Notes: generated by a model from the letters alone, not told the origin. A stretch of DNA of 64,000 bases from Sandaracinaceae bacterium (GCA_016706685.1 JADJJE010000051.1:49667-113666), one strand, 5' to 3'. Shown: positions 1-64,000, counted from the first letter of the stretch. Numbers and translations are program-made.

Positions 1-1146
1 GAGGCCCGTGCCGCCGAACTCGCGCGTGCTCGAGGAGTCGCCCTGTTGGAATGCGTCGAAGATGTGCGGGAGCGCCGCTGGGTCGATGCCGATGCCCGTG
101 TCCTCCACGGTGACCTGCAGCGCGCCGTGCGCGTCGGCATAGCCCACGCGGACGTCCACGCGGCCATCGCGCGTGAACTTCACCGCGTTGCCCACCAGGT
201 TCATGAGCGTCTGCTGGAAGCGCGTGGTGTCCAGCAGCAGGGCCTCCGGCACGCTGTCGTCGAAGCTCACGCGCAGCGCCACGCCGCGCGCGCTGGCCAT
301 GGCCTCGAACACCCGCAGCGTCTCGTGCACGGCGCGGCGCACCCGCGTGCGGGACGGGCGCAGCTCCATGCGGCCCGCCTCGATCTTGGAGAAGTCGAGG
401 ATGCTGTCCACCAGCCCGCGCAGCACGCGCGCGCTCGACTCCACGATGCCCAGCGTCTCGCGTTGCGTGGTGCTCAGCTCGCTGCGCGCCAGCACCTCCA
501 CCGGCCCGATCAGCCCGTTCAGCGGGGTGCGCAGCTCGTGCGTCATCGTGGCCAGGAACTCGCTCTTGGCGCGCGAGGCGGCCTCGGCCACGTCGCGCGC
601 GCTGCTGAGCTCCACGCTCTGCGCGCGGATGATGGCCTCGCGCTCACGCACCTTGGCGAGCGCGGCGTCGGTGCCGCGGCGCGTGGCGATGGCGGCCCCG
701 AGCGCCATCAGGACGAGCGTCAGTTGCGAGAACAAACGCTCGAACGCGTCGACCTCGAACTCTGGGGTCAGCGGCAGCACGGTCTCGAGCGCATGCGTCC
801 CCAGGATCCCCGTGACGCCGATGGCGGTCCAGCCCAGCGCTACGCGGTGGTCGCCCAGCAGCCCTCCCACGAAGGGCACGAGCGGCAGGTACCAGAGCGG
901 CATGCTCGCGCCCTGCCCGGCAACCTGAGCCGCGGCGATCAGCGCGATGGTCGCCGACCCGAGGCCGATGTGCACCGAGAGCCGCGTGCGCTCGCGCGAG
1001 TGGGCTCCGCGCAGCACCTGCACTGCAGCAAGACACGAGAGCGCGGCGAACGTGTTGATCAGCGCGACCCGCGGACGCCCGAGGATGAAGGAAGAGACCG
1101 CAAAGAAGGCCCACGCGGCGGCGCACAGCCAGGCAATGCGCAGCAT
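1..1146 (-). CDS. sensor histidine kinase (partial; 3' end runs off the window)
   Basis: Absent from the ORF track because there is no stop in the window. Hand translation of the reverse strand gives SEFLATMTHELRTPLNGLIG (H-box), TLMNLVGNAVKFT (N-box), EDTGIGI and FDAFQQGDSSSTREFGGTGL (G2 box) reading down to nt 1. The N-terminal ~130 aa are hydrophobic. ATG at 1146; in-frame alternative GTG at 1227. Confidence 0.85.
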   Translation of the reverse strand, partial: MLRIAWLCAAAWAFFAVSSFILGRPRVALINTFAALSCLAAVQVLRGAHSRERTRLSVHIGLGSATIALIAAAQVAGQGASMPLWYLPLVPFVGGLLGDHRVALGWTAIGVTGILGTHALETVLPLTPEFEVDAFERLFSQLTLVLMALGAAIATRRGTDAALAKVREREAIIRAQSVELSSARDVAEAASRAKSEFLATMTHELRTPLNGLIGPVEVLARSELSTTQRETLGIVESSARVLRGLVDSILDFSKIEAGRMELRPSRTRVRRAVHETLRVFEAMASARGVALRVSFDDSVPEALLLDTTRFQQTLMNLVGNAVKFTRDGRVDVRVGYADAHGALQVTVEDTGIGIDPAALPHIFDAFQQGDSSSTREFGGTGL

Positions 1147-18800: not shown

Positions 18801-20085
18801 ACGCGTCGGCGGTGACCAGGAAGTCTTGCGTGCGCAGCCGCACGGGACCGCCCAGGTCGAGCGGACTCAGCGTGCCGGCGAGGTCGATGCGGCCGGCCAG
18901 CGTCCACTGCGCGATGGCGTCGGGCGTGACGTCCAGCTGCTTCAAGAGCTTGGCCAGCTGGAGCGCGTCGATGTCGAGCGTGGCGGTGAGCGGCAGGTCG
19001 GCCGTGAAGCCCACCTCGGCGTGGCCCGTCACCACGCCGCCGCCCTCGATGACCTGGAAGCGCATCTCGGTGACACGTGCGCGCGTGGCGTCGAAGTCGA
19101 AGTCCAGCTCCACGGTCTCGCCCAGGCCGTAGATGTCGATGGCGCCGTCACGCAGGCGCACTTGTCCGTGGCCCTCGGGGCTGCCGTCACGCATGCCGAT
19201 GGTGGCGTCCACCTCGGCCATGCCGCGCAAGGGTGGCAGCTCGAGCCCCAGCGGGAGGTCCGCGAGGTGCGCGAGGTCGGCGCGCACCTGCACGTTGCCT
19301 TGGAAGCGCGACTCGAAGGGCAGCGGGATGTGCGCGTCGCTGGCCCCCACCGAGAAGTGCTCGCTTCCGATGGCCAGCTCCGAGATGTCCACGCCGGTGT
19401 CCGGGTCGAGGCTGACCGCGGCGCGCAGCGACTGGATGTCCAGGCGCTGGTCGCCGTGACGCACGTGGCCCTCACCCCCCGTGACGCGCAGGTGCAGGAT
19501 GGTGCCGCCTTCGACGCGCAGGTCCACCTCGAGGCCAGCCAGCTGCAGCGCGCCGTCGGGGCTGGCGTCCACGTGCACCGTGGCGTCGGTCAGCGTCAGG
19601 CGCGAGAACGGCAGGCGCGTGGGGCTGTTGGGGTCCGGCTCCGCGCGCGGCCGCGGCAGGTTGCGCACCTCGCCCTCGCGCACGATCAGGTTGACCACGG
19701 CGCCGTCGATCAGGATCTCGTCGAGGTCCAGCTCACCCCGCAGCAGCGCGCCCACGCTGGGCGAGATGACCAGCCGGCGGGCCTTCACCAGCCGGCCATA
19801 GACGGGGTCCACCAGGGCGATCTCGCTGGCCACCACCTCGATACGCGGCGGCAGGAGGCCGAGATCCACACGCAGCTCACCGAAGCTGGCGTCGAGGCCC
19901 AGCTCGTCGCGGATGACGGTGACGGTCAGCTCGCGGATGCGCGCGCGCCCCCAGCTGGTCTGCGTGAGCCCGATGGCCAGCGAAAGCGTGGCCAGGATCG
20001 CGAGCACGACGTTTCGTGCCCAGCGCAACCAGCCGGCTTTGCGTGGGGGTTCATCGGACACGGCAGCTCTCGGGATCCATAGCAC
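15871..20085 (-). CDS. tamB: translocation and assembly module protein TamB-like (DUF490)
   Basis: 1404 aa with an N-terminal membrane anchor (WARNVVLAILATLSLAIGL), a long beta-rich repetitive body, and a DUF490-type C-terminus (...IGKRIAERVRLTASTSLTGDTREIRAGVEWQLGDQTSIQAGYDN...). The start is GTG at 20085; an alternative GTG lies ~27 nt downstream. Confidence 0.85.
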   Translation of the reverse strand: MLWIPRAAVSDEPPRKAGWLRWARNVVLAILATLSLAIGLTQTSWGRARIRELTVTVIRDELGLDASFGELRVDLGLLPPRIEVVASEIALVDPVYGRLVKARRLVISPSVGALLRGELDLDEILIDGAVVNLIVREGEVRNLPRPRAEPDPNSPTRLPFSRLTLTDATVHVDASPDGALQLAGLEVDLRVEGGTILHLRVTGGEGHVRHGDQRLDIQSLRAAVSLDPDTGVDISELAIGSEHFSVGASDAHIPLPFESRFQGNVQVRADLAHLADLPLGLELPPLRGMAEVDATIGMRDGSPEGHGQVRLRDGAIDIYGLGETVELDFDFDATRARVTEMRFQVIEGGGVVTGHAEVGFTADLPLTATLDIDALQLAKLLKQLDVTPDAIAQWTLAGRIDLAGTLSPLDLGGPVRLRTQDFLVTADAWHQRPATRIMGIPRGRVEGRVTVTPEGLGFRDLDVTMPNSTAHVDLLLGFEDYIEVTGHSTQMDLADVTPLTTLHLGGRGSWRASVRGPYGSPAVEGHVQMNGFEFDTFRAGNIESDFVLENESMSVRFPLITAVKNESRYTVEDLLVDFRDNRFEVTALVHAQRMVLADLYHVFRLETDERFTPFQGVAHGTTRVRYSTGFPDDLPAGTLRATVDIGFSSAHFAGFAFDAGALEAEWRWIDYARGVDGAELDVTHLALHKAGGTVAIAGTMGLGGVLQLSVSADNIPFSATEGFEEMPELGGTWSLLGQIDGTSSVPHLHADLGMHQLAWAGEPLGDGRLYVRLTDRTDPWVAEAASWDPAALPEDEPCYNARAGLAHGRWPADPPLQTPSGPVQSLDRPMAFLLCGEALEGQVLVDMALGWTSDLPMRGRVRFNRMDLAPLLAGALPGAEATGVLNGEMRFDDGALSNDTYGGDLHLDTLEVEVAGIPIRNDGPIDVRFVRGEGRVQRMALVGPGTQLSVSGRASLRTGLRTRVDGVVDLGLLATTSPTVTDARGRLELGVRISGDASDPSVFGEARVVDGAFRFAGFPVPLEELNGHVTFSSHRLIFEDIHARLGSGWVDVAGVATIADGGLRDYTFDVGVRDAALRPMAGVDLGFDAQARLYWEPSMRLPMLRGQVQLERLVYSRTTSLSPTLGELNRPELEGLGEYDPANDNLDVELTITGRPIRVRNNLLTVDIAIADHDRPFQIVGTDQRLGVLGQLAVQRGSVRFRNAVLEMRNGDIRFDDATRINPSFDVTAETDIRTRDLDRNDWRISLHAYGNMDAFRLEARSDPSASEQDILLLLTIGLTTAQAQSLQAADLGGAALEAVSSLSGVNDEVSEALQVIDDFAITTMYSTRTNRPEPQVTIGKRIAERVRLTASTSLTGDTREIRAGVEWQLGDQTSIQAGYDNVNRETQSFGNVGVDFHWRIEFE

Positions 20086-20203
20086 GCGACCCCTTCGGAC
20101 CGCCTGCTTTCAGCGGGCCGTGTGGGGCCTGGTAGGTGTACGCGCAGGGCTCGGGAATCTGCTCTCCGTCGGTCCGCCTGTTCGAACGCGGGCGTGGTGG
20201 CGA

Positions 20204-20370
20204 GGAGGGCGACGGGCACCCTGCTCTGCGGGGGCGGGCGCGCTGGCGCGCCCTCTGGTTGACCTCCCCCATTTCGGCGCGTCCGGAGGACGCTTGAAAT
20301 AGGGCCCCCCCAAGCCCCGCTGCCGCAGGGCGCCCGTCGCCCTCCATGGTGGCGTCTCGGGTGCGCGGGG
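20204..20370 (-). repeat. copy A of a ~156-nt intergenic repeat (candidate structured RNA/leader or MITE)
   Basis: The reverse complement of 20204-20359 aligns to 33146-33300 with 146 of 156 columns identical (hand alignment: 9 substitutions, 1 indel). Weaker similarity extends to ~20370. Contains an internal long-range inverted repeat. Confidence 0.85.
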
Positions 20371-20592
20371 TGGTCCCGCCGGAGAGCCGATGAACGGGGG
20401 TGCGCGTGAGCTTGCGGGGCGCGACTGGGCTCGTGGGGTCGCGGGGCGGTCCTCATGCGCGTGTGGGGGGCGCGCCGAGTCGGACGTGGGCTCGGATGAG
20501 CGCGGATGGGTCGGGAGTGACGCGCGCACGCTCTCGGCCGGCGTTCTGCGGGTGACGGAGGGGGCGTGTTACGTTCTGTGGATGGAGGTCCG

Positions 20593-21900
20593 ATGCTGAC
20601 TCGCCGGATGCTGGGTGCGCTGTGCTGGGCCGTTGCCGTTGGAGGATGCGGGACTCCCGAGCTGCCTCCCGTGGTGGCTTCGGCGCCGGGGATCACCATT
20701 CGGTCCAGCGTCCCGATGGATGAGTGCACGGCCTCGCTCTCGATTGGCTACTACCGCACGTTGAGCGATCTGTTGGGGGTCGATCAGGCGATCGAGGTCG
20801 TGAGGGTGGACGACCTCGATGCGTGGTGCCGGGACGGCGTCGATGGCTGCGAGTATGGGAGCAGGGCCTACACGGTGCTCGACTTTCATCCGCACGAGAT
20901 CACCCATGCCGTGTTCGCGAGCGCGGGGCGCTCCCTGCCGTTCCTCGAGGAGGGGGTCGCGGAGCTCGGCGAGTGCGCGCTGGGGATGCCGGCGTACGTG
21001 ACGCCGACGAGCCTGCCGCTGACCGAGTCACTCGTGTTCCGGGACTCGTTCTCCGGGGTGGTGGGGGACGAGCGGACGACCGCGACGCAGTTCGTGTCCT
21101 ACGCTGTTTCGGAGCTCGGCTGGCGGGGCTTCTTGGCGCTGTACGACAGCGTGTCTCTCCAGCAGGGCGACGATCAGAACGCCCAGCGGATCGCGGCGGC
21201 GATGGGGAGACCTTGGAGTCAGGTGCTCTCGGACTTCGAAGCAGTGGGGCGGCTGAGTATGAGCGAGGTGTGCGCGGCACACGCGCAGAGTCTCGGCGTC
21301 GGCATGCTCGCTGACGGGGAAGTTCGATGCCTGCCGCTGTTCACGGGCGACATCGTCTTCGGGGTACGTGGGGCGAGTGAGAGCGCGTCGCCACGCTTGG
21401 TTCGTGCCGAGATGTCGAGCCCCGCCCGGCTGTACACGCGGTTCGTCCAGATGGCAGCGCCCTTTGATCAGACCATCTGGGACTTGGGAGTGGGGGGGCG
21501 AACGCTGGCCTTGGCCACGCTCGGCGCGGGTGCGATCGAGAGCGAGATCTGGACCGAGACCGAAGCGTCGGGTGAGGGCGTGTGGGTGTCGGTGGAGGCG
21601 GTGCCCACTTGCCCGAGCGCAGCAGAAGACCTCGCGGACTTCGATCGCATCGGGCTGGCGGTCATCGGCGACGTAGATGCCGCGTCCGTCGTGGTGCACA
21701 GCGCGGCGGGTGCCCGCTTGGTGCCGTCGGGTGGGGAGAACGCCGAACTCGCGATCTGCACCGATTGCGACTTCTCAGAGGGCTGCCTCTCAGCGGTGGG
21801 TGGCTACCAGCTCGTGGCGGGGGTGACGTACCACGTGGAGCTGCGCCGCGCGGAGCCCATGCTCCCGTCTGCGACCACGACCTTGGGCGTGCTTCGCTAG
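20593..21900 (+). CDS. hypothetical lipoprotein with an HExxH motif
   Basis: I prefer the ATG at 20593 (GGAGG 4 nt upstream). Lipobox AVAVGG-C. Single HEITH motif (FHPHEITHAVF). No other family features recognised. Confidence 0.6.
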   Translation: MLTRRMLGALCWAVAVGGCGTPELPPVVASAPGITIRSSVPMDECTASLSIGYYRTLSDLLGVDQAIEVVRVDDLDAWCRDGVDGCEYGSRAYTVLDFHPHEITHAVFASAGRSLPFLEEGVAELGECALGMPAYVTPTSLPLTESLVFRDSFSGVVGDERTTATQFVSYAVSELGWRGFLALYDSVSLQQGDDQNAQRIAAAMGRPWSQVLSDFEAVGRLSMSEVCAAHAQSLGVGMLADGEVRCLPLFTGDIVFGVRGASESASPRLVRAEMSSPARLYTRFVQMAAPFDQTIWDLGVGGRTLALATLGAGAIESEIWTETEASGEGVWVSVEAVPTCPSAAEDLADFDRIGLAVIGDVDAASVVVHSAAGARLVPSGGENAELAICTDCDFSEGCLSAVGGYQLVAGVTYHVELRRAEPMLPSATTTLGVLR

Positions 21901-32847: not shown

Positions 32848-32997
32848 ATGCGCGGATTTGCACTGGGTCCGGATGGCCGGATTGCTCGTGCGTTCGTCGC
32901 GTCGTCTGTTCTGGCAGCCCAACCCGTTCTCCAAGCGACCCAGAACGCCAGTCTGATGAATGCGTTCGAGTTCCCCCTCTGCGAGTACGTCCAGTAG
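32848..32997 (+). CDS. possible small ORF (49 aa), function unknown
   Basis: AAGGAGA lies 5 nt upstream of the ATG at 32848, in a low-GC pocket. Peptide: MRGFALGPDGRIARAFVASSVLAAQPVLQATQNASLMNAFEFPLCEYVQ. No homology recognised. Confidence 0.2.
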   Translation: MRGFALGPDGRIARAFVASSVLAAQPVLQATQNASLMNAFEFPLCEYVQ

Positions 32998-33130
32998 AGC
33001 GGCCCACGTTAGCGCCACGTCGCCTGACTTCCTGTGCCATCCGCGTCCCAGGAGCAGGAGCACTCTGGCGAGCCCAGCTGAGCCCATCAGGGGCCCCCTT
33101 CAGATCCCAGGCGCGTTCCCCCGCCGCGTC

Positions 33131-33300
33131 CCCCGCGTGCTCTCTCGAGACGCCACCGTGGAGGGGGACGGGCGCCCTGGGCAGCGGGGCTTGGGGGGGC
33201 CCTATTTCAAGCGTCCGCAGGACGCGCCGAAATGGGGGAGGTCAACCAGAGGGAGCGCCTGCGCGACCGCCCCCGCAGACCAGGGTGCCCGTCGCACTCC
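33131..33300 (+). repeat. copy B of the ~156-nt intergenic repeat
   Basis: 33146-33300 matches the reverse complement of 20204-20359 (146 of 156 columns). The 14-bp long-range helix is 33167-33180 with 33280-33293. It ends ~55 nt upstream of the GTG at 33354. Confidence 0.85.
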
Positions 33301-33353
33301 CATCGATCACGCCCCCAGAGACGCCCGCCACCCGCGTGTGGTAAGCAACTCCT

Positions 33354-33523
33354 GTGATCCCCGCCCCGCCCGGTACCGACTCGATTCGGAACGACCTCGC
33401 CCGCCTCGTCGCCGGCGGCAAAGCGTCTAGCTCGGACCCCGACCGCGTGGCCTACGCCCGCGACCTCTGGCCGCGCCACCAGATCGCCACCCGCGCCGGC
33501 AACCCTGCCGTGGCGCCCCCGCG
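33354..33523 (+). pseudogene. N-terminal segment of the FAD-linked oxidase, in a different frame from the body of the gene
   Basis: The frame from GTG 33354 reads ...DPDRVAYARDLWPRHQIATRAGNPAVAPP, the expected N-terminus of AGPS/GlcD-type oxidases. The sense continues only in the frame that opens at 33524 (VIVWPSNTEELSSVIAYAAARSIPVVPYGAGSG). Confidence 0.65.
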
Positions 33524-33595
33524 GTCATTGTCTGGCCCAGCAACACCGAAGAGCTCTCGTCCGTCATCGCCTACGCAGCGGCCCGCAGCATCCCG

Positions 33596-34933
33596 GTGGT
33601 CCCCTATGGCGCCGGCAGCGGTGTATGCGGCGGCGTGCTGCCCACCACCGACACCGTGCTCATCGACATGAAGATGATGCGCTCCCTAAAGACCATCGAC
33701 CGCGCGCGCCTCACCTGCGACGCGGACGCGGGCATGATCGGCCAGCACCTCGAGGACGACCTCGGCGCGGCCGGCTTCACACTCGGGCACTTCCCCAGCA
33801 GCATCTACTGCTCCACGCTGGGCGGCTGGGTGGCGGGACGCTCCGCCGGGCAGTGCTCGGGGCGCTACGGCAAGATCGAGGACATGGTGCTGGGCCTCAC
33901 CGTGGTGGACGGCACCGGCCGCGTGCTGCGCGCCGAGCGCGGCGGCGACAACAGCGCGCTCCTGCCGCTGTTCATCGGCAGCGAGGGCATCCTGGGCGTG
34001 GTCACCGAGGCGCGTCTGCGCATCGCCCCGGCGCCTCCCTGCCGGCGCTTCGCGAGCTACCTCTTCCCCAGCACCGAGACCGGCCTCGATGCCATCCGGC
34101 GCATCTACCAGGCGGGCCTGCGACCGGCCGTGGCGCGCTTGTACGACCCGTTCGACTCCATGATTGCCCGGCGCGGTGGCCTGCGCACCGAGCACGAAGC
34201 CGAGCCCAAGCCCAAGCGCACGGAGGCCAAGCCGGGCCTCGGCCTGCGCGCGCTGGTGCAGGCGCTGCGGGCGCCCGGCATGCTGAACGAGCTCATCGAC
34301 CGCGTGCCCGACAAGACCATGGGCGGCGCCAAGCTCATCTTGGTGTGGGAGGCCGACCCGCTCATCGCCGACGCGGAGCTGCGCGAGGCGCGCGCCATCT
34401 GCAGCCGGTACGACGCGCAGGACACGGGCGAGGGGCCCGCCAAGCACTGGCTCGGGCACCGCCACAGCGTGAGCTACCGCCAGTCGCCCCTGTTCACGGC
34501 CGGCGCCTTCATTGACACCATGGAGGTGGCCGCCACCTGGTCGCGCTTGCTGCCCATGTACCACGCGGTGCGCTCCGCCCTCTCACCGCACGTGTTCGTC
34601 ATGGCGCACTTCAGCCACGCGTACCCGGATGGCGCCTCCATCTACTTCACCTTCGCTGGCGCGGCGCGTGACGACCACGCCTGCGAGCTGGCCTACGACC
34701 GCGCTTGGAAGGCTGCGCTGAAGGCGGTGGTCGCGGCGGGCGGCACGCTCAGCCACCACCACGGCGTGGGCCGCAGCAAGGCGCCCGCCATGCGCAGCGA
34801 GCAGGGCAACGCCATCGACGTGGTGCGCGAGCTCAAGCGCGTGATGGACCCGAAGGGCATCTTCAACCGCGGGGCGTTGATCCCCGACCTGGACGAGCAC
34901 ACCCCGCTCGGTCCCGTGGCGGAGGCCGAGTGA
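33596..34933 (+). CDS. FAD-linked oxidase, alkyl-dihydroxyacetonephosphate-synthase-like (GlcD/PCMH family); the ORF as called lacks its N-terminus
   Basis: 445-aa track ORF from GTG 33596. VVPYGAGSGVCGG (FAD_binding_4), GHFPSSIYCSTLGGWVAGRSAGQCSGRYGKIEDMVLGLTVV (AGPS-like) and a C-terminal FAD-oxidase_C region (...GGTLSHHHGVGRSK). The homologous sense extends upstream to 33524 and then to 33354 in another frame. Confidence 0.85.
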   Translation: MVPYGAGSGVCGGVLPTTDTVLIDMKMMRSLKTIDRARLTCDADAGMIGQHLEDDLGAAGFTLGHFPSSIYCSTLGGWVAGRSAGQCSGRYGKIEDMVLGLTVVDGTGRVLRAERGGDNSALLPLFIGSEGILGVVTEARLRIAPAPPCRRFASYLFPSTETGLDAIRRIYQAGLRPAVARLYDPFDSMIARRGGLRTEHEAEPKPKRTEAKPGLGLRALVQALRAPGMLNELIDRVPDKTMGGAKLILVWEADPLIADAELREARAICSRYDAQDTGEGPAKHWLGHRHSVSYRQSPLFTAGAFIDTMEVAATWSRLLPMYHAVRSALSPHVFVMAHFSHAYPDGASIYFTFAGAARDDHACELAYDRAWKAALKAVVAAGGTLSHHHGVGRSKAPAMRSEQGNAIDVVRELKRVMDPKGIFNRGALIPDLDEHTPLGPVAEAE

Positions 34934-61540: not shown

Positions 61541-62122
61541 ATGTCCGAGCCCGAGCACGTCGAGTCCCTGCTGACGACCCCGGCCTTTCGCCTCGAGCGC
61601 ATCGTCTCGCGCGGGCACGCGTCTCCGCCGGGCTTCTGGTACGACCAGGACGAGCACGAGTGGGTGTGCCTCGTGTCGGGGGCGGCCACGCTCGAGATCG
61701 AGGGCAGCGACACCGTGGCGCTACGTGCGGGGAGCACGCACCTGCTCCCTGCGCGGACGCGCCACCGCGTGGCCTGGACGAGCCCCACCGAGACCACCGT
61801 CTGGCTCGCGCTCTTCTTCCGCGACGCTCCGCTCCCCATGCTGGCCGCGGAGCACATCGCCCGCATCGTGGGCCACATGAACGACGACCACGGCGACTCG
61901 CTGCTGGACTACGCACGCCACCTGGCAGGCGTCCCTGGCGCCACGTCCGCGCGCATGACGCAGGTGGACGCCGCAGGGTTCGGGCTCGCCGCCGAGACTC
62001 CGGAAGGACCCCGTCAGCTGCGGCTGCCGTTCGACGCCCCGATCCGCGACACGGGCGAGGCGCGCAGCGCCCTCGTGGCCATGGCCAAGCGCGCCCGGCA
62101 GGCCGATCACCCCCAGGAGTGA
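61541..62122 (+). CDS. cupin domain fused to a DUF2470-like domain
   Basis: ATG at 61541; 193 aa. The N-terminal cupin reads FRLERIVS.GH.SP.GFWYDQ.EHEWV.L..G.A.LE..........G....LPA..RHRV.WTS. The C-terminal part reads IVGHMNDDHGDSLLDYARHLAG...A.M...D..GF.L (DUF2470 pattern). Confidence 0.65.
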   Translation: MSEPEHVESLLTTPAFRLERIVSRGHASPPGFWYDQDEHEWVCLVSGAATLEIEGSDTVALRAGSTHLLPARTRHRVAWTSPTETTVWLALFFRDAPLPMLAAEHIARIVGHMNDDHGDSLLDYARHLAGVPGATSARMTQVDAAGFGLAAETPEGPRQLRLPFDAPIRDTGEARSALVAMAKRARQADHPQE

Positions 62123-62174
62123 TCTCCGCACGCGACCTGTGTTAGCCTCATCGCTCACAGTCACGACGGGGGTC

Positions 62175-64000
<1,826 letters not shown>

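Follow-up and report, generated by a model that had tools for sequence, protein, structure and literature searches.

A 64,000-nt stretch of DNA, referred to here as a whole as the window, contains the same short sequence twice, on opposite strands. What is this repeat, and does it serve the genes that it precedes? An initial annotation had offered three answers, namely a shared 5' leader of two envelope operons, a small RNA gene and a MITE. In our analysis the small RNA gene and the MITE still lead, while the shared leader does not. We find that the two copies belong to a small, undescribed family of intergenic elements of about 150-170 nt that is restricted to Sandaracinaceae. The best explanation of the element, to which we give a probability of roughly 0.45, is a low-copy, MITE-like structured repeat of the bcr1, ERIC or Correia kind.

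Results

The repeat pair and its gene neighbours

The window represents chromosomal DNA from an uncultured member of the Sandaracinaceae. Its TamB is 100% identical to the protein of an NCBI MAG, and its FAD-oxidase locus is 99.3-99.5% identical to GCA_016704065.1, GCA_016714965.1 and GCA_964269115.1. Alignment of copy A (20204-20359, minus strand) with copy B (33146-33300, plus strand) by MAFFT reproduces the 9 substitutions and the single 1-nt indel that had first been counted by hand. The aligned stretch runs from CGAGACGCCACC... to ...CGTCGC(C/A)CTCC, and BLASTN matches the copies over 170 nt with 91.2% identity (E = 1e-64). They form the longest inverted repeat that a repeat search finds in the window, and a 20-mer of the core occurs exactly twice there against 0.00 expected from shuffles. 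When the 64 kb were searched with a covariance model and filters off, the match following the two copies (Table 1) scored 19 bits, and neither this search nor BLASTN at word size 7 found a third copy in the window. The weak additional similarity suspected on the 5' side is real. It runs for about 15 nt (CGAGACGCCACC[A/G]T) beyond the closing helix described below, and about 10-15 nt are shared beyond that helix on the 3' side. Further out the flanks are unrelated, as had been proposed (local alignment p = 0.54 upstream and 0.74 downstream), with the sole exception of a short motif 70-90 nt upstream. Our analysis also confirms that both copies are intergenic and oriented toward the next gene. 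The unit carries no coding frame: because of their 1-nt indel A and B cannot share a reading frame, more indels occur in the relatives L020 and L034, and a coding unit was rejected on these grounds.

The element had not been recognised as a named RNA family, and Rfam 15 (4227 models) likewise gives nothing at the gathering score across the window. Around copy A a single chance-level match appears at E<=10 (SNORA76, E = 5.2) and lies outside the element, and at E<=1 nothing relevant appears in L003, L014, L020 and L034. Literature searches found no published description of the element. Collections of plasmids, phages and viruses contain no match to it, and an origin from any of these was rejected.

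Copy A lies between the tamB-omp85 operon on the minus strand and a divergent operon for a 444-aa HExxH lipoprotein, a 169-aa protein and a redoxin. Copy B follows a gene for a 195-aa membrane-anchored protein and precedes an operon that encodes an AGPS-like FAD oxidase, a FAD_binding_4 protein and two DUF4953 metzincins. The inverted copies do not bound an island or composite transposon, since the interior of these 12.8 kb is syntenic with relatives (169-aa gene, redoxin, TetR, amidohydrolase). Four other assemblies of the same species cover copy B together with its upstream flank, and none of them shows an inversion. The window ORFs that were scanned encode neither a transposase, an integrase or a reverse transcriptase nor a TnpB or Ro-like protein.

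Several features of these neighbours are recorded as separate observations. The predicted 444-aa lipoprotein (20566-21900, plus strand) has a HEITH zinc-protease motif without a Pfam match, and the GC3 of its gene (0.83) is below that of its neighbours. The gene is missing here in the closest tamB loci, L016 and L017, and thus appears to have been inserted beside copy A. The FAD-oxidase gene (33354-34933) is frameshifted in the window, with C5 near 33515-33520 against C6 in L024, L025, L026 and L028, which encode an intact 526-aa FAD oxidase (P0145). The frameshift is probably a homopolymer assembly error in the source of the window and not a pseudogene. A ParE-toxin/antitoxin pair at 27.7-28.3 kb (L024 4357-4883), within the 12.8 kb between the copies, is flanked by an amidohydrolase gene and MacB-type ABC exporter genes. 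Elsewhere in the window, a gene with at least 8 MopE-type Cu-binding repeats (61959-63998 and 62684-63948) appears as a tandem DNA periodicity of about 200 nt (repeat family D1).

Table 1. Coordinates of the two copies, their parts and nearby sequences in the window
Feature	Position	Strand	Evidence
Copy A, all sequence homologous to B (5' tail, structured core, 3' tail)	20190..20362	-	BLASTN 20190-20359
Copy A, match to covariance model R1	20199-20350	-	158 bits
Copy A, P1 5' arm GGAGGGCGACGGGCGCCCTGC	20325..20345	-	MFE fold z = -4.75; consensus structure
Copy A, P1 3' arm GCAGGGTGCCCGTCGCCCTCC, doubling as terminal inverted repeat	20204..20224	-	Fold, pair counts
Copy A, interior helices P2, P3a, P3, P3b, P4	20225..20324	-	Fold and compensatory pairs
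Copy B, whole homologous stretch	33143..33314	+	Alignment, BLASTN
Copy B, match to covariance model R1	33155-33305	+	154 bits
Copy B, P1 5' arm	33160..33180	+	Fold, pair counts
Copy B, P1 3' arm	33280..33300	+	Fold, pair counts
Copy B, interior helices P2, P3a, P3, P3b, P4	33181..33279	+	Centroid fold, pair counts
Upstream motif GAGCCCAGTCGCGCCC, about 72 nt 5' of copy A P1	20417..20432	-	Pattern match
Upstream motif GAGCCCAGCTGAGCCC, about 75 nt 5' of copy B P1	33070..33085	+	Pattern match
Copy A, left direct repeat CGCCACCA, 1 nt before P1	20347..20354	-	Read from sequence; p = 0.09
Copy A, right direct repeat CGCCACCA, 1 nt after P1	20195..20202	-	Read from sequence; p = 0.09
Context outside the element: tamB extended -10-like box TGCTATGGA	20076..20084	-	Kept in element-less relatives
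Context: extended -10-like box TGGTAAGCA, 7 nt before GTG 33354	33339..33347	+	Kept in L030

Distribution among relatives

When 185,579 species genomes were scanned for an exact 21-nt pattern from the core, one real contig was returned, L003, from a Sandaracinaceae MAG. The scan did not return the window's own copies, so the window genome must be absent from that collection or masked in it, and because the large collections were scanned with exact patterns, diverged members are under-sampled. A metagenome scan added L014 and L015, the latter a 99.5% twin of copy A; three further metagenome contigs (L011, L012, L013) were discarded as chance matches that share just the 19-20-nt seed. Homologues of the neighbouring proteins led to L020, to two truncated copies (L021 and L022) and to the strongly diverged L034, and copy B is 100% identical in five other same-species assemblies. 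No copy occurs in some 210 kb of further DNA from Sandaracinaceae and Polyangiales that had been retrieved for other purposes, and a broader covariance model (R2) finds no diverged member in 267 kb.

The copies in relatives reveal a third locus. In L003, L014, L020 and L034 the element lies about 110 nt upstream of a MaoC dehydratase/ketoreductase/thiolase operon and is oriented with its genes; this downstream operon is shared, whereas the upstream genes are all different. Presence varies at each of the three loci. At tamB the element occurs in the window and L015 and is absent from L016-L018; at MaoC it occurs in L003, L014, L020-L022 and L034 and is absent from L023, L031 and L035; at the FAD-oxidase locus it is mostly deleted in L030. 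Comparison of L023 with the filled MaoC loci, where synteny breaks, recovers no clean empty site with exact boundaries.

Two side observations come from these contigs. Those of L019, L021, L022 and L027 begin or finish inside the element, suggesting that its inverted arms break assemblies. About 120 nt upstream of the L034 copy there is a separate nested palindromic unit (L034 380-817) without an Rfam match, in which 21-nt inverted repeats (380-400/797-817) surround two inner arm pairs, one of 19 nt and perfect (476-494/733-751) and one of 50 nt (485-534/684-733). This unit may be another MITE-like or structured RNA element.

A six-helix fold with covariation

The element folds into a closing helix P1 of 21 bp (GGAGGGCGACGGGCGCCCUG / CAGGGUGCCCGUCGCCCUCC) around five inner helices. 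P1 encloses P2 (GCGGGG/CCCCGC) and a junction with P4 (GGGNGCGC/GCGCGNCC in each copy) and with an arm of P3a (UUGG/CCAG), P3 (CCCUAUUUC/GAAAUGGGG) and the capping hairpin P3b (GCGUCC-loop-GGACGC); in copy A the same P3 is accompanied by GCGUCC-UCC-GGACGC as P3b and GGGCGCGC/GCGCGCCC as P4. Nothing outside the P1 arms, which are 20-22 nt long, is conserved as part of the unit, and they bound it as terminal inverted repeats. Copy A matches its own inverse over 31 nt at 87% by BLASTN. On the sense strand the fold z-scores are -4.75 for A, -2.6 for B and -6.0 for L020, compared with -1.8 for the antisense strand of A.

Covariation was counted in six distinct, related copies, with the L034 row aligned by the model. 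Compensatory double changes occur in 15 of 54 pairs and in all six helices, one-sided variation is seen at 2 pairs only, and 95.3% of the cells are paired. None of 500 column shuffles matches the observed compensating pairs, percentage paired or covariation score, and at most 3 compensating pairs remain when partners are slid by 1-3 columns as a control. An alignment of five sequences by MAFFT agrees with this result. The distal half of P3 has been fully rewritten in L034, from AUUUC/GAAAU to GGAAGC/GCUUCC, with pairing kept. Sense-strand G-U pairs are kept at four positions in five or all six copies, while a fifth varies; only one cell is C-A, the equivalent of G-U on the opposite strand. Four copies from two lineages share invariant 33-nt blocks, and internal-loop nucleotides (AA/GCC, G-runs) are conserved in four copies. 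The covariation and the G-U pattern favour RNA, or at least a single-stranded fold of the sense strand, and in this respect the initial annotation, which had considered RNA elements, was probably right.

Compensatory changes of this kind could also arise if the element were a quasi-palindrome, cruciform or protein site acting at the DNA level, where intrastrand template switching rather than selection on RNA would restore the pairs. The long inverted arms would suit such a site, as would the greater divergence of the palindrome than of its flanks, which fits hairpin-associated mutation, the deletion between short direct repeats in L030, and the contig breaks inside the element in L019, L021, L022 and L027. 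However, template switching would tend to erase the four one-strand G-U positions that are kept in at least five of six copies, and G-U pairs bring no gain to duplex DNA. Four small internal helices are kept as well as the long arms, and folding is stronger on the sense strand than on the antisense strand. We consider an explanation at the DNA level highly improbable.

The element and the genes downstream

Could the element be a cis-acting 5' leader, riboswitch-like and co-transcribed with the downstream operon, perhaps in lipid or envelope metabolism? The position of the copies invites this question, since at the three intact loci the element is co-oriented with the next gene and lies 53-195 nt before its start. 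Its complex fold, with several helices and conserved nucleotides at the junction, is of a kind typical for aptamers, and TamB, the AGPS-like FAD oxidase and the MaoC/ketoreductase/thiolase proteins might be loosely linked through lipids. Co-orientation at 3/3 intact loci is not significant alone (p = 0.125, with one strand-specific expectation). The distance at tamB also had to be revised. The start assigned to GTG 20085 is probably wrong: the NCBI protein has 1378 aa, which places the start near 20007, and 20076-20084 is a conserved promoter-like box. With this start copy A ends about 175-195 nt upstream, not about 120 nt.

Comparison of orthologous loci argues against a leader. The tamB orthologues L016-L018 (83-84% identity) have a 117-nt upstream region without the element and keep the proximal 100 nt or so (window ~20030-20143), including the TGCTATGGA box at 20084-20076. 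The box, which in the window follows copy A at a distance of about 120 nt, reads TGCTATGCA in L016, TGCTATGGA in L017 and TGCTATGAA in L019, loci that lack the element or hold a relic of it. Its retention in element-less relatives places copy A upstream of the likely tamB promoter. L019, whose TamB is 76% identical, carries upstream of tamB a relic of the 3' half in reversed orientation (BLAST E = 5e-5; positions 8-61, minus strand, at the contig edge) that comprises P4, the 3' strand of P2, the P1 3' arm and the CGCCACC tail. Every MaoC locus, whether or not it carries the element, has a TGGTAGACA/TGGTAGGGA-type box; the orthologous loci L023, L031 and L035 have no element, yet they keep the box as TGGTAG(A/G)(C/G)A (L031: TGGTACGCA). 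As a separate observation, a TGGTAG(A/G)(C/G)A-AAC box related to TGGTAAGCA stands upstream of maoC in most lineages examined.

At the FAD-oxidase locus, the closely related strain L030 has the same operon and has lost 133 nt of copy B by a deletion between CCCCCGC direct repeats (L030 300-360 vs window 33130-33340), while the TGGTAAGCA box is retained. Its downstream DNA is 98-99% identical to that of the window, and its remnant tail resembles the L003-type tail CACGTCTCC. The TGGTAAGCA box, immediately upstream of GTG 33354 and with no Shine-Dalgarno sequence, suggests a leaderless FAD-oxidase mRNA. Judging from their conservation and position, the extended -10-like boxes are putative promoters, and one of them lies between P1 and the start codon at each of the three loci and persists where the element is missing. 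No terminator or Shine-Dalgarno-sequestering site that could act as an expression platform follows either copy, and Rfam gives no riboswitch match. The downstream genes (TamB, FAD oxidase, MaoC dehydratase) are not homologous, their orthologous operons work without the element, and thus a consistent 5' UTR position before homologous or linked genes was not found. The proposal of a shared 5' leader of envelope operons is therefore not supported, since orthologues often lack the element and the third locus, that of the MaoC operon, is not an envelope locus. We regard a cis-acting leader as very unlikely.

Sequences flanking the element

The short motif that the otherwise unrelated flanks share consists of tandem 10-bp CCCAGYYGAG-like units 70-90 nt upstream of P1. 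The pattern GAGCCCAGYYGMGCCC matches the window only at the two sites of Table 1 (0.16 expected); the motif also occurs in L014, L015 and L020 and, with one mismatch, in L003. Support from this pattern is moderate because it was derived from those same sequences. Tests of upstream alignments give p = 0.005 for A-L014 and p < 0.005 for B-L003. Closer in, parts of the 5' tail reappear in every copy as short direct repeats 2-21 nt beyond P1, which are individually weak. In copy A CGCCACCA stands 1 nt away from P1 on both sides, and copy B has an imperfect repeat, GAGACGCC, at -13 and +17; the repeats CACGTCACCGT/CACGTCTCCGT of L003 match at 10/11 positions (p = 0.007), and those of B, L014, L020 and L034 are weak (p = 0.12-0.62). 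The direct repeats overlap sequence that is conserved among the copies and are thus not clean target-site duplications.

These flanks bear on the possibility that the element is a host small-RNA gene family, in which an independent structured RNA of about 150 nt, trans-acting or protein-binding and present as two paralogues, would be transcribed from a promoter or regulator site close to the GAGCCCAG-N2-GAGCCC motif that lies upstream. The tandem-unit motif does resemble a transcription-factor site, and copy B occupies a space of its own between the terminator-like hairpin of the gene upstream (32888-32902) and the next promoter-like box. Strong covariation in six helices with almost no one-sided changes, the invariant 33-nt blocks and conserved loop nucleotides, the sense-strand G-U asymmetry, the low copy number and the retention of the element at the MaoC locus in four lineages all agree with such a gene. 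However, sigma-70 and intrinsic-terminator scans find no signal beside either copy, a result to be read with the caution that consensus scans are ill-suited to a myxobacterium of 71% G+C, and reading by eye finds no sigma-54 (GG-N10-GC) or ECF-type box. A and B show no conservation in the stretch where a promoter would be expected, 16-70 nt upstream of P1. Close relatives and one strain lack the element or can dispense with it, and its core evolves faster than adjacent intergenic DNA. On balance a small-RNA gene family seems to us possible but rather doubtful.

Divergence, gain and loss

The core diverges faster than its flanks (73-88% vs 95-99% identity) with its structure kept. Between L014 and L020 the flanks are 99% identical downstream and 95% upstream, while the core is 88% identical; between L034 and L014, at the same locus, the proximal flank is 95% and the core 73-74% identical. 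The upstream intergenic DNA of L030 is 96% identical to that of the window, compared with about 81%, counted by eye, for the remnant tail. L003 and L014, which represent a different locus in another lineage, match copy B at 90-91% identity. Since B is closer to these copies than L034 is to L014 at one and the same locus, the tree of the element disagrees with locus and host. Such discord fits movement, exchange between paralogues, or recombination between copies that reshuffles upstream flanks, and does not fit simple vertical descent of a leader. Synteny also breaks at the upstream edge of the element, at the 444-aa gene beside copy A and in L003, L014, L020 and L034.

Turnover of this kind, with the element sequence changing several times faster than the surrounding intergenic DNA while the six-helix fold is kept, could alternatively mark a new Sandaracinaceae-specific class of structured ncRNA in which genetic conflict or site-specific insertion is at work, as opposed to an inert MITE or a regulatory small RNA of the ordinary type. 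In the insertion variant, a small RNA-guided or RNA-structured mobile module may insert next to CGCCACC/CGTCACC-like sites. We consider this reading unlikely.

Discussion

Our results are best accommodated by a MITE-like element. This reading draws on a discrete, non-coding unit with unrelated flanks and a size below the limit of about 400 bp for MITEs, on inverted arms of 20-22 bp and on occurrence at three unrelated loci. Presence or absence at orthologous sites, decay in L030 and L019, the synteny breaks and the discordant tree point the same way, as do a sense-strand structure with covariation and short direct repeats beside P1. Against it stand the very low copy number (2 in 64 kb and none in about 210 kb), the individual weakness of the direct repeats (p = 0.007-0.6) together with the want of a clean empty site, and window ORFs without transposase, integrase or reverse transcriptase; we also know of no parent insertion sequence. 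The invariant 33-nt blocks and the motif outside the arms would fit a host gene with a regulatory site as well. Because of the low copy number, the ambiguous duplications, the want of a known parent insertion sequence, the elaborate fold and the outside motif, the small-RNA gene family stays a serious rival.

If the element is MITE-like, the repeat would have been duplicated or moved between intergenic sites, spreading by mobility or recombination. Among close relatives it would have been gained, lost, truncated and exchanged, and would mark synteny breakpoints. Any function would lie in the folded transcript and not in control of the tamB or FAD-oxidase operon. The transcript could be a stable RNA module that is processed, binds protein or affects the read-through or stability of its neighbours.

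The ncRNA of Sandaracinaceae myxobacteria is almost unexplored, and the element is a well-supported candidate for a structured RNA without an Rfam counterpart. It also offers a compact case for the spread and upkeep of structured repeats in very GC-rich genomes and bears on whether such repeats are selfish, domesticated or both. For genome comparison it flags synteny breakpoints and assembly breaks in Sandaracinaceae MAGs. A regulatory link between the TAM (TamB/Omp85) operon and the metalloprotease operon, which the position of the copies had seemed to offer, is removed as unsupported. The element would be of greater interest if its fast, structure-preserving turnover reflected selection and not gene conversion.

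Among known systems, several can be set aside. A retron msr/msd was rejected because no reverse-transcriptase domain is found in the window ORFs scanned and the genes downstream are tamB, FAD oxidase and maoC. For integron attC sites, Y RNA and 6S RNA, the partner integrase or Ro protein is not found among the window ORFs scanned or the defining motifs are missing, and the same holds for the IS110 recombinase or TnpB partners or defining motifs of bridge RNA and omega-RNA. The element resembles riboswitches and other structured leaders in its multi-helix junction closed by a long P1 and in its co-oriented position upstream of genes. Unlike riboswitches, it has no conserved gene association or expression platform, is followed by promoter-like boxes and is dispensable in orthologues. 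Pxr of Myxococcus and other Cystobacterineae is likewise described as a lineage-restricted myxobacterial structured small RNA with paralogues (PMC5568312). However, Pxr has a different fold and sits at a conserved syntenic locus, whereas our element is patchy.

MITEs offer the closer comparison. The enterobacterial, neisserial and pneumococcal elements ERIC, Correia (CREE) and RUP are imperfect palindromes of 100-160 bp that lie between genes, close to plastic regions of the genome; they form hairpins, can be transcribed together with their neighbours and can affect mRNA stability (PMC3184786). In contrast to our element, they usually number tens to hundreds of copies, and have TA or other defined target duplications and IHF sites or outward promoters, none of which were found here. 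The bcr1 repeat of the Bacillus cereus group, about 155 bp long, has a non-conserved distribution, flanking direct repeats, transcription and compensatory base-pair changes that preserve an RNA hairpin (PMC3184786). It is abundant and transcribed and has clear 5-bp direct repeats, whereas the Sandaracinaceae element, known from sequence alone, has 1-2 copies per genome sample and ambiguous repeats; there is no sequence similarity between the two, and the simple cruciform of bcr1 differs from the multi-helix junction described here. Despite these differences, our element is like bcr1 in its size, in its patchy distribution between relatives and in compensatory changes at the RNA level.
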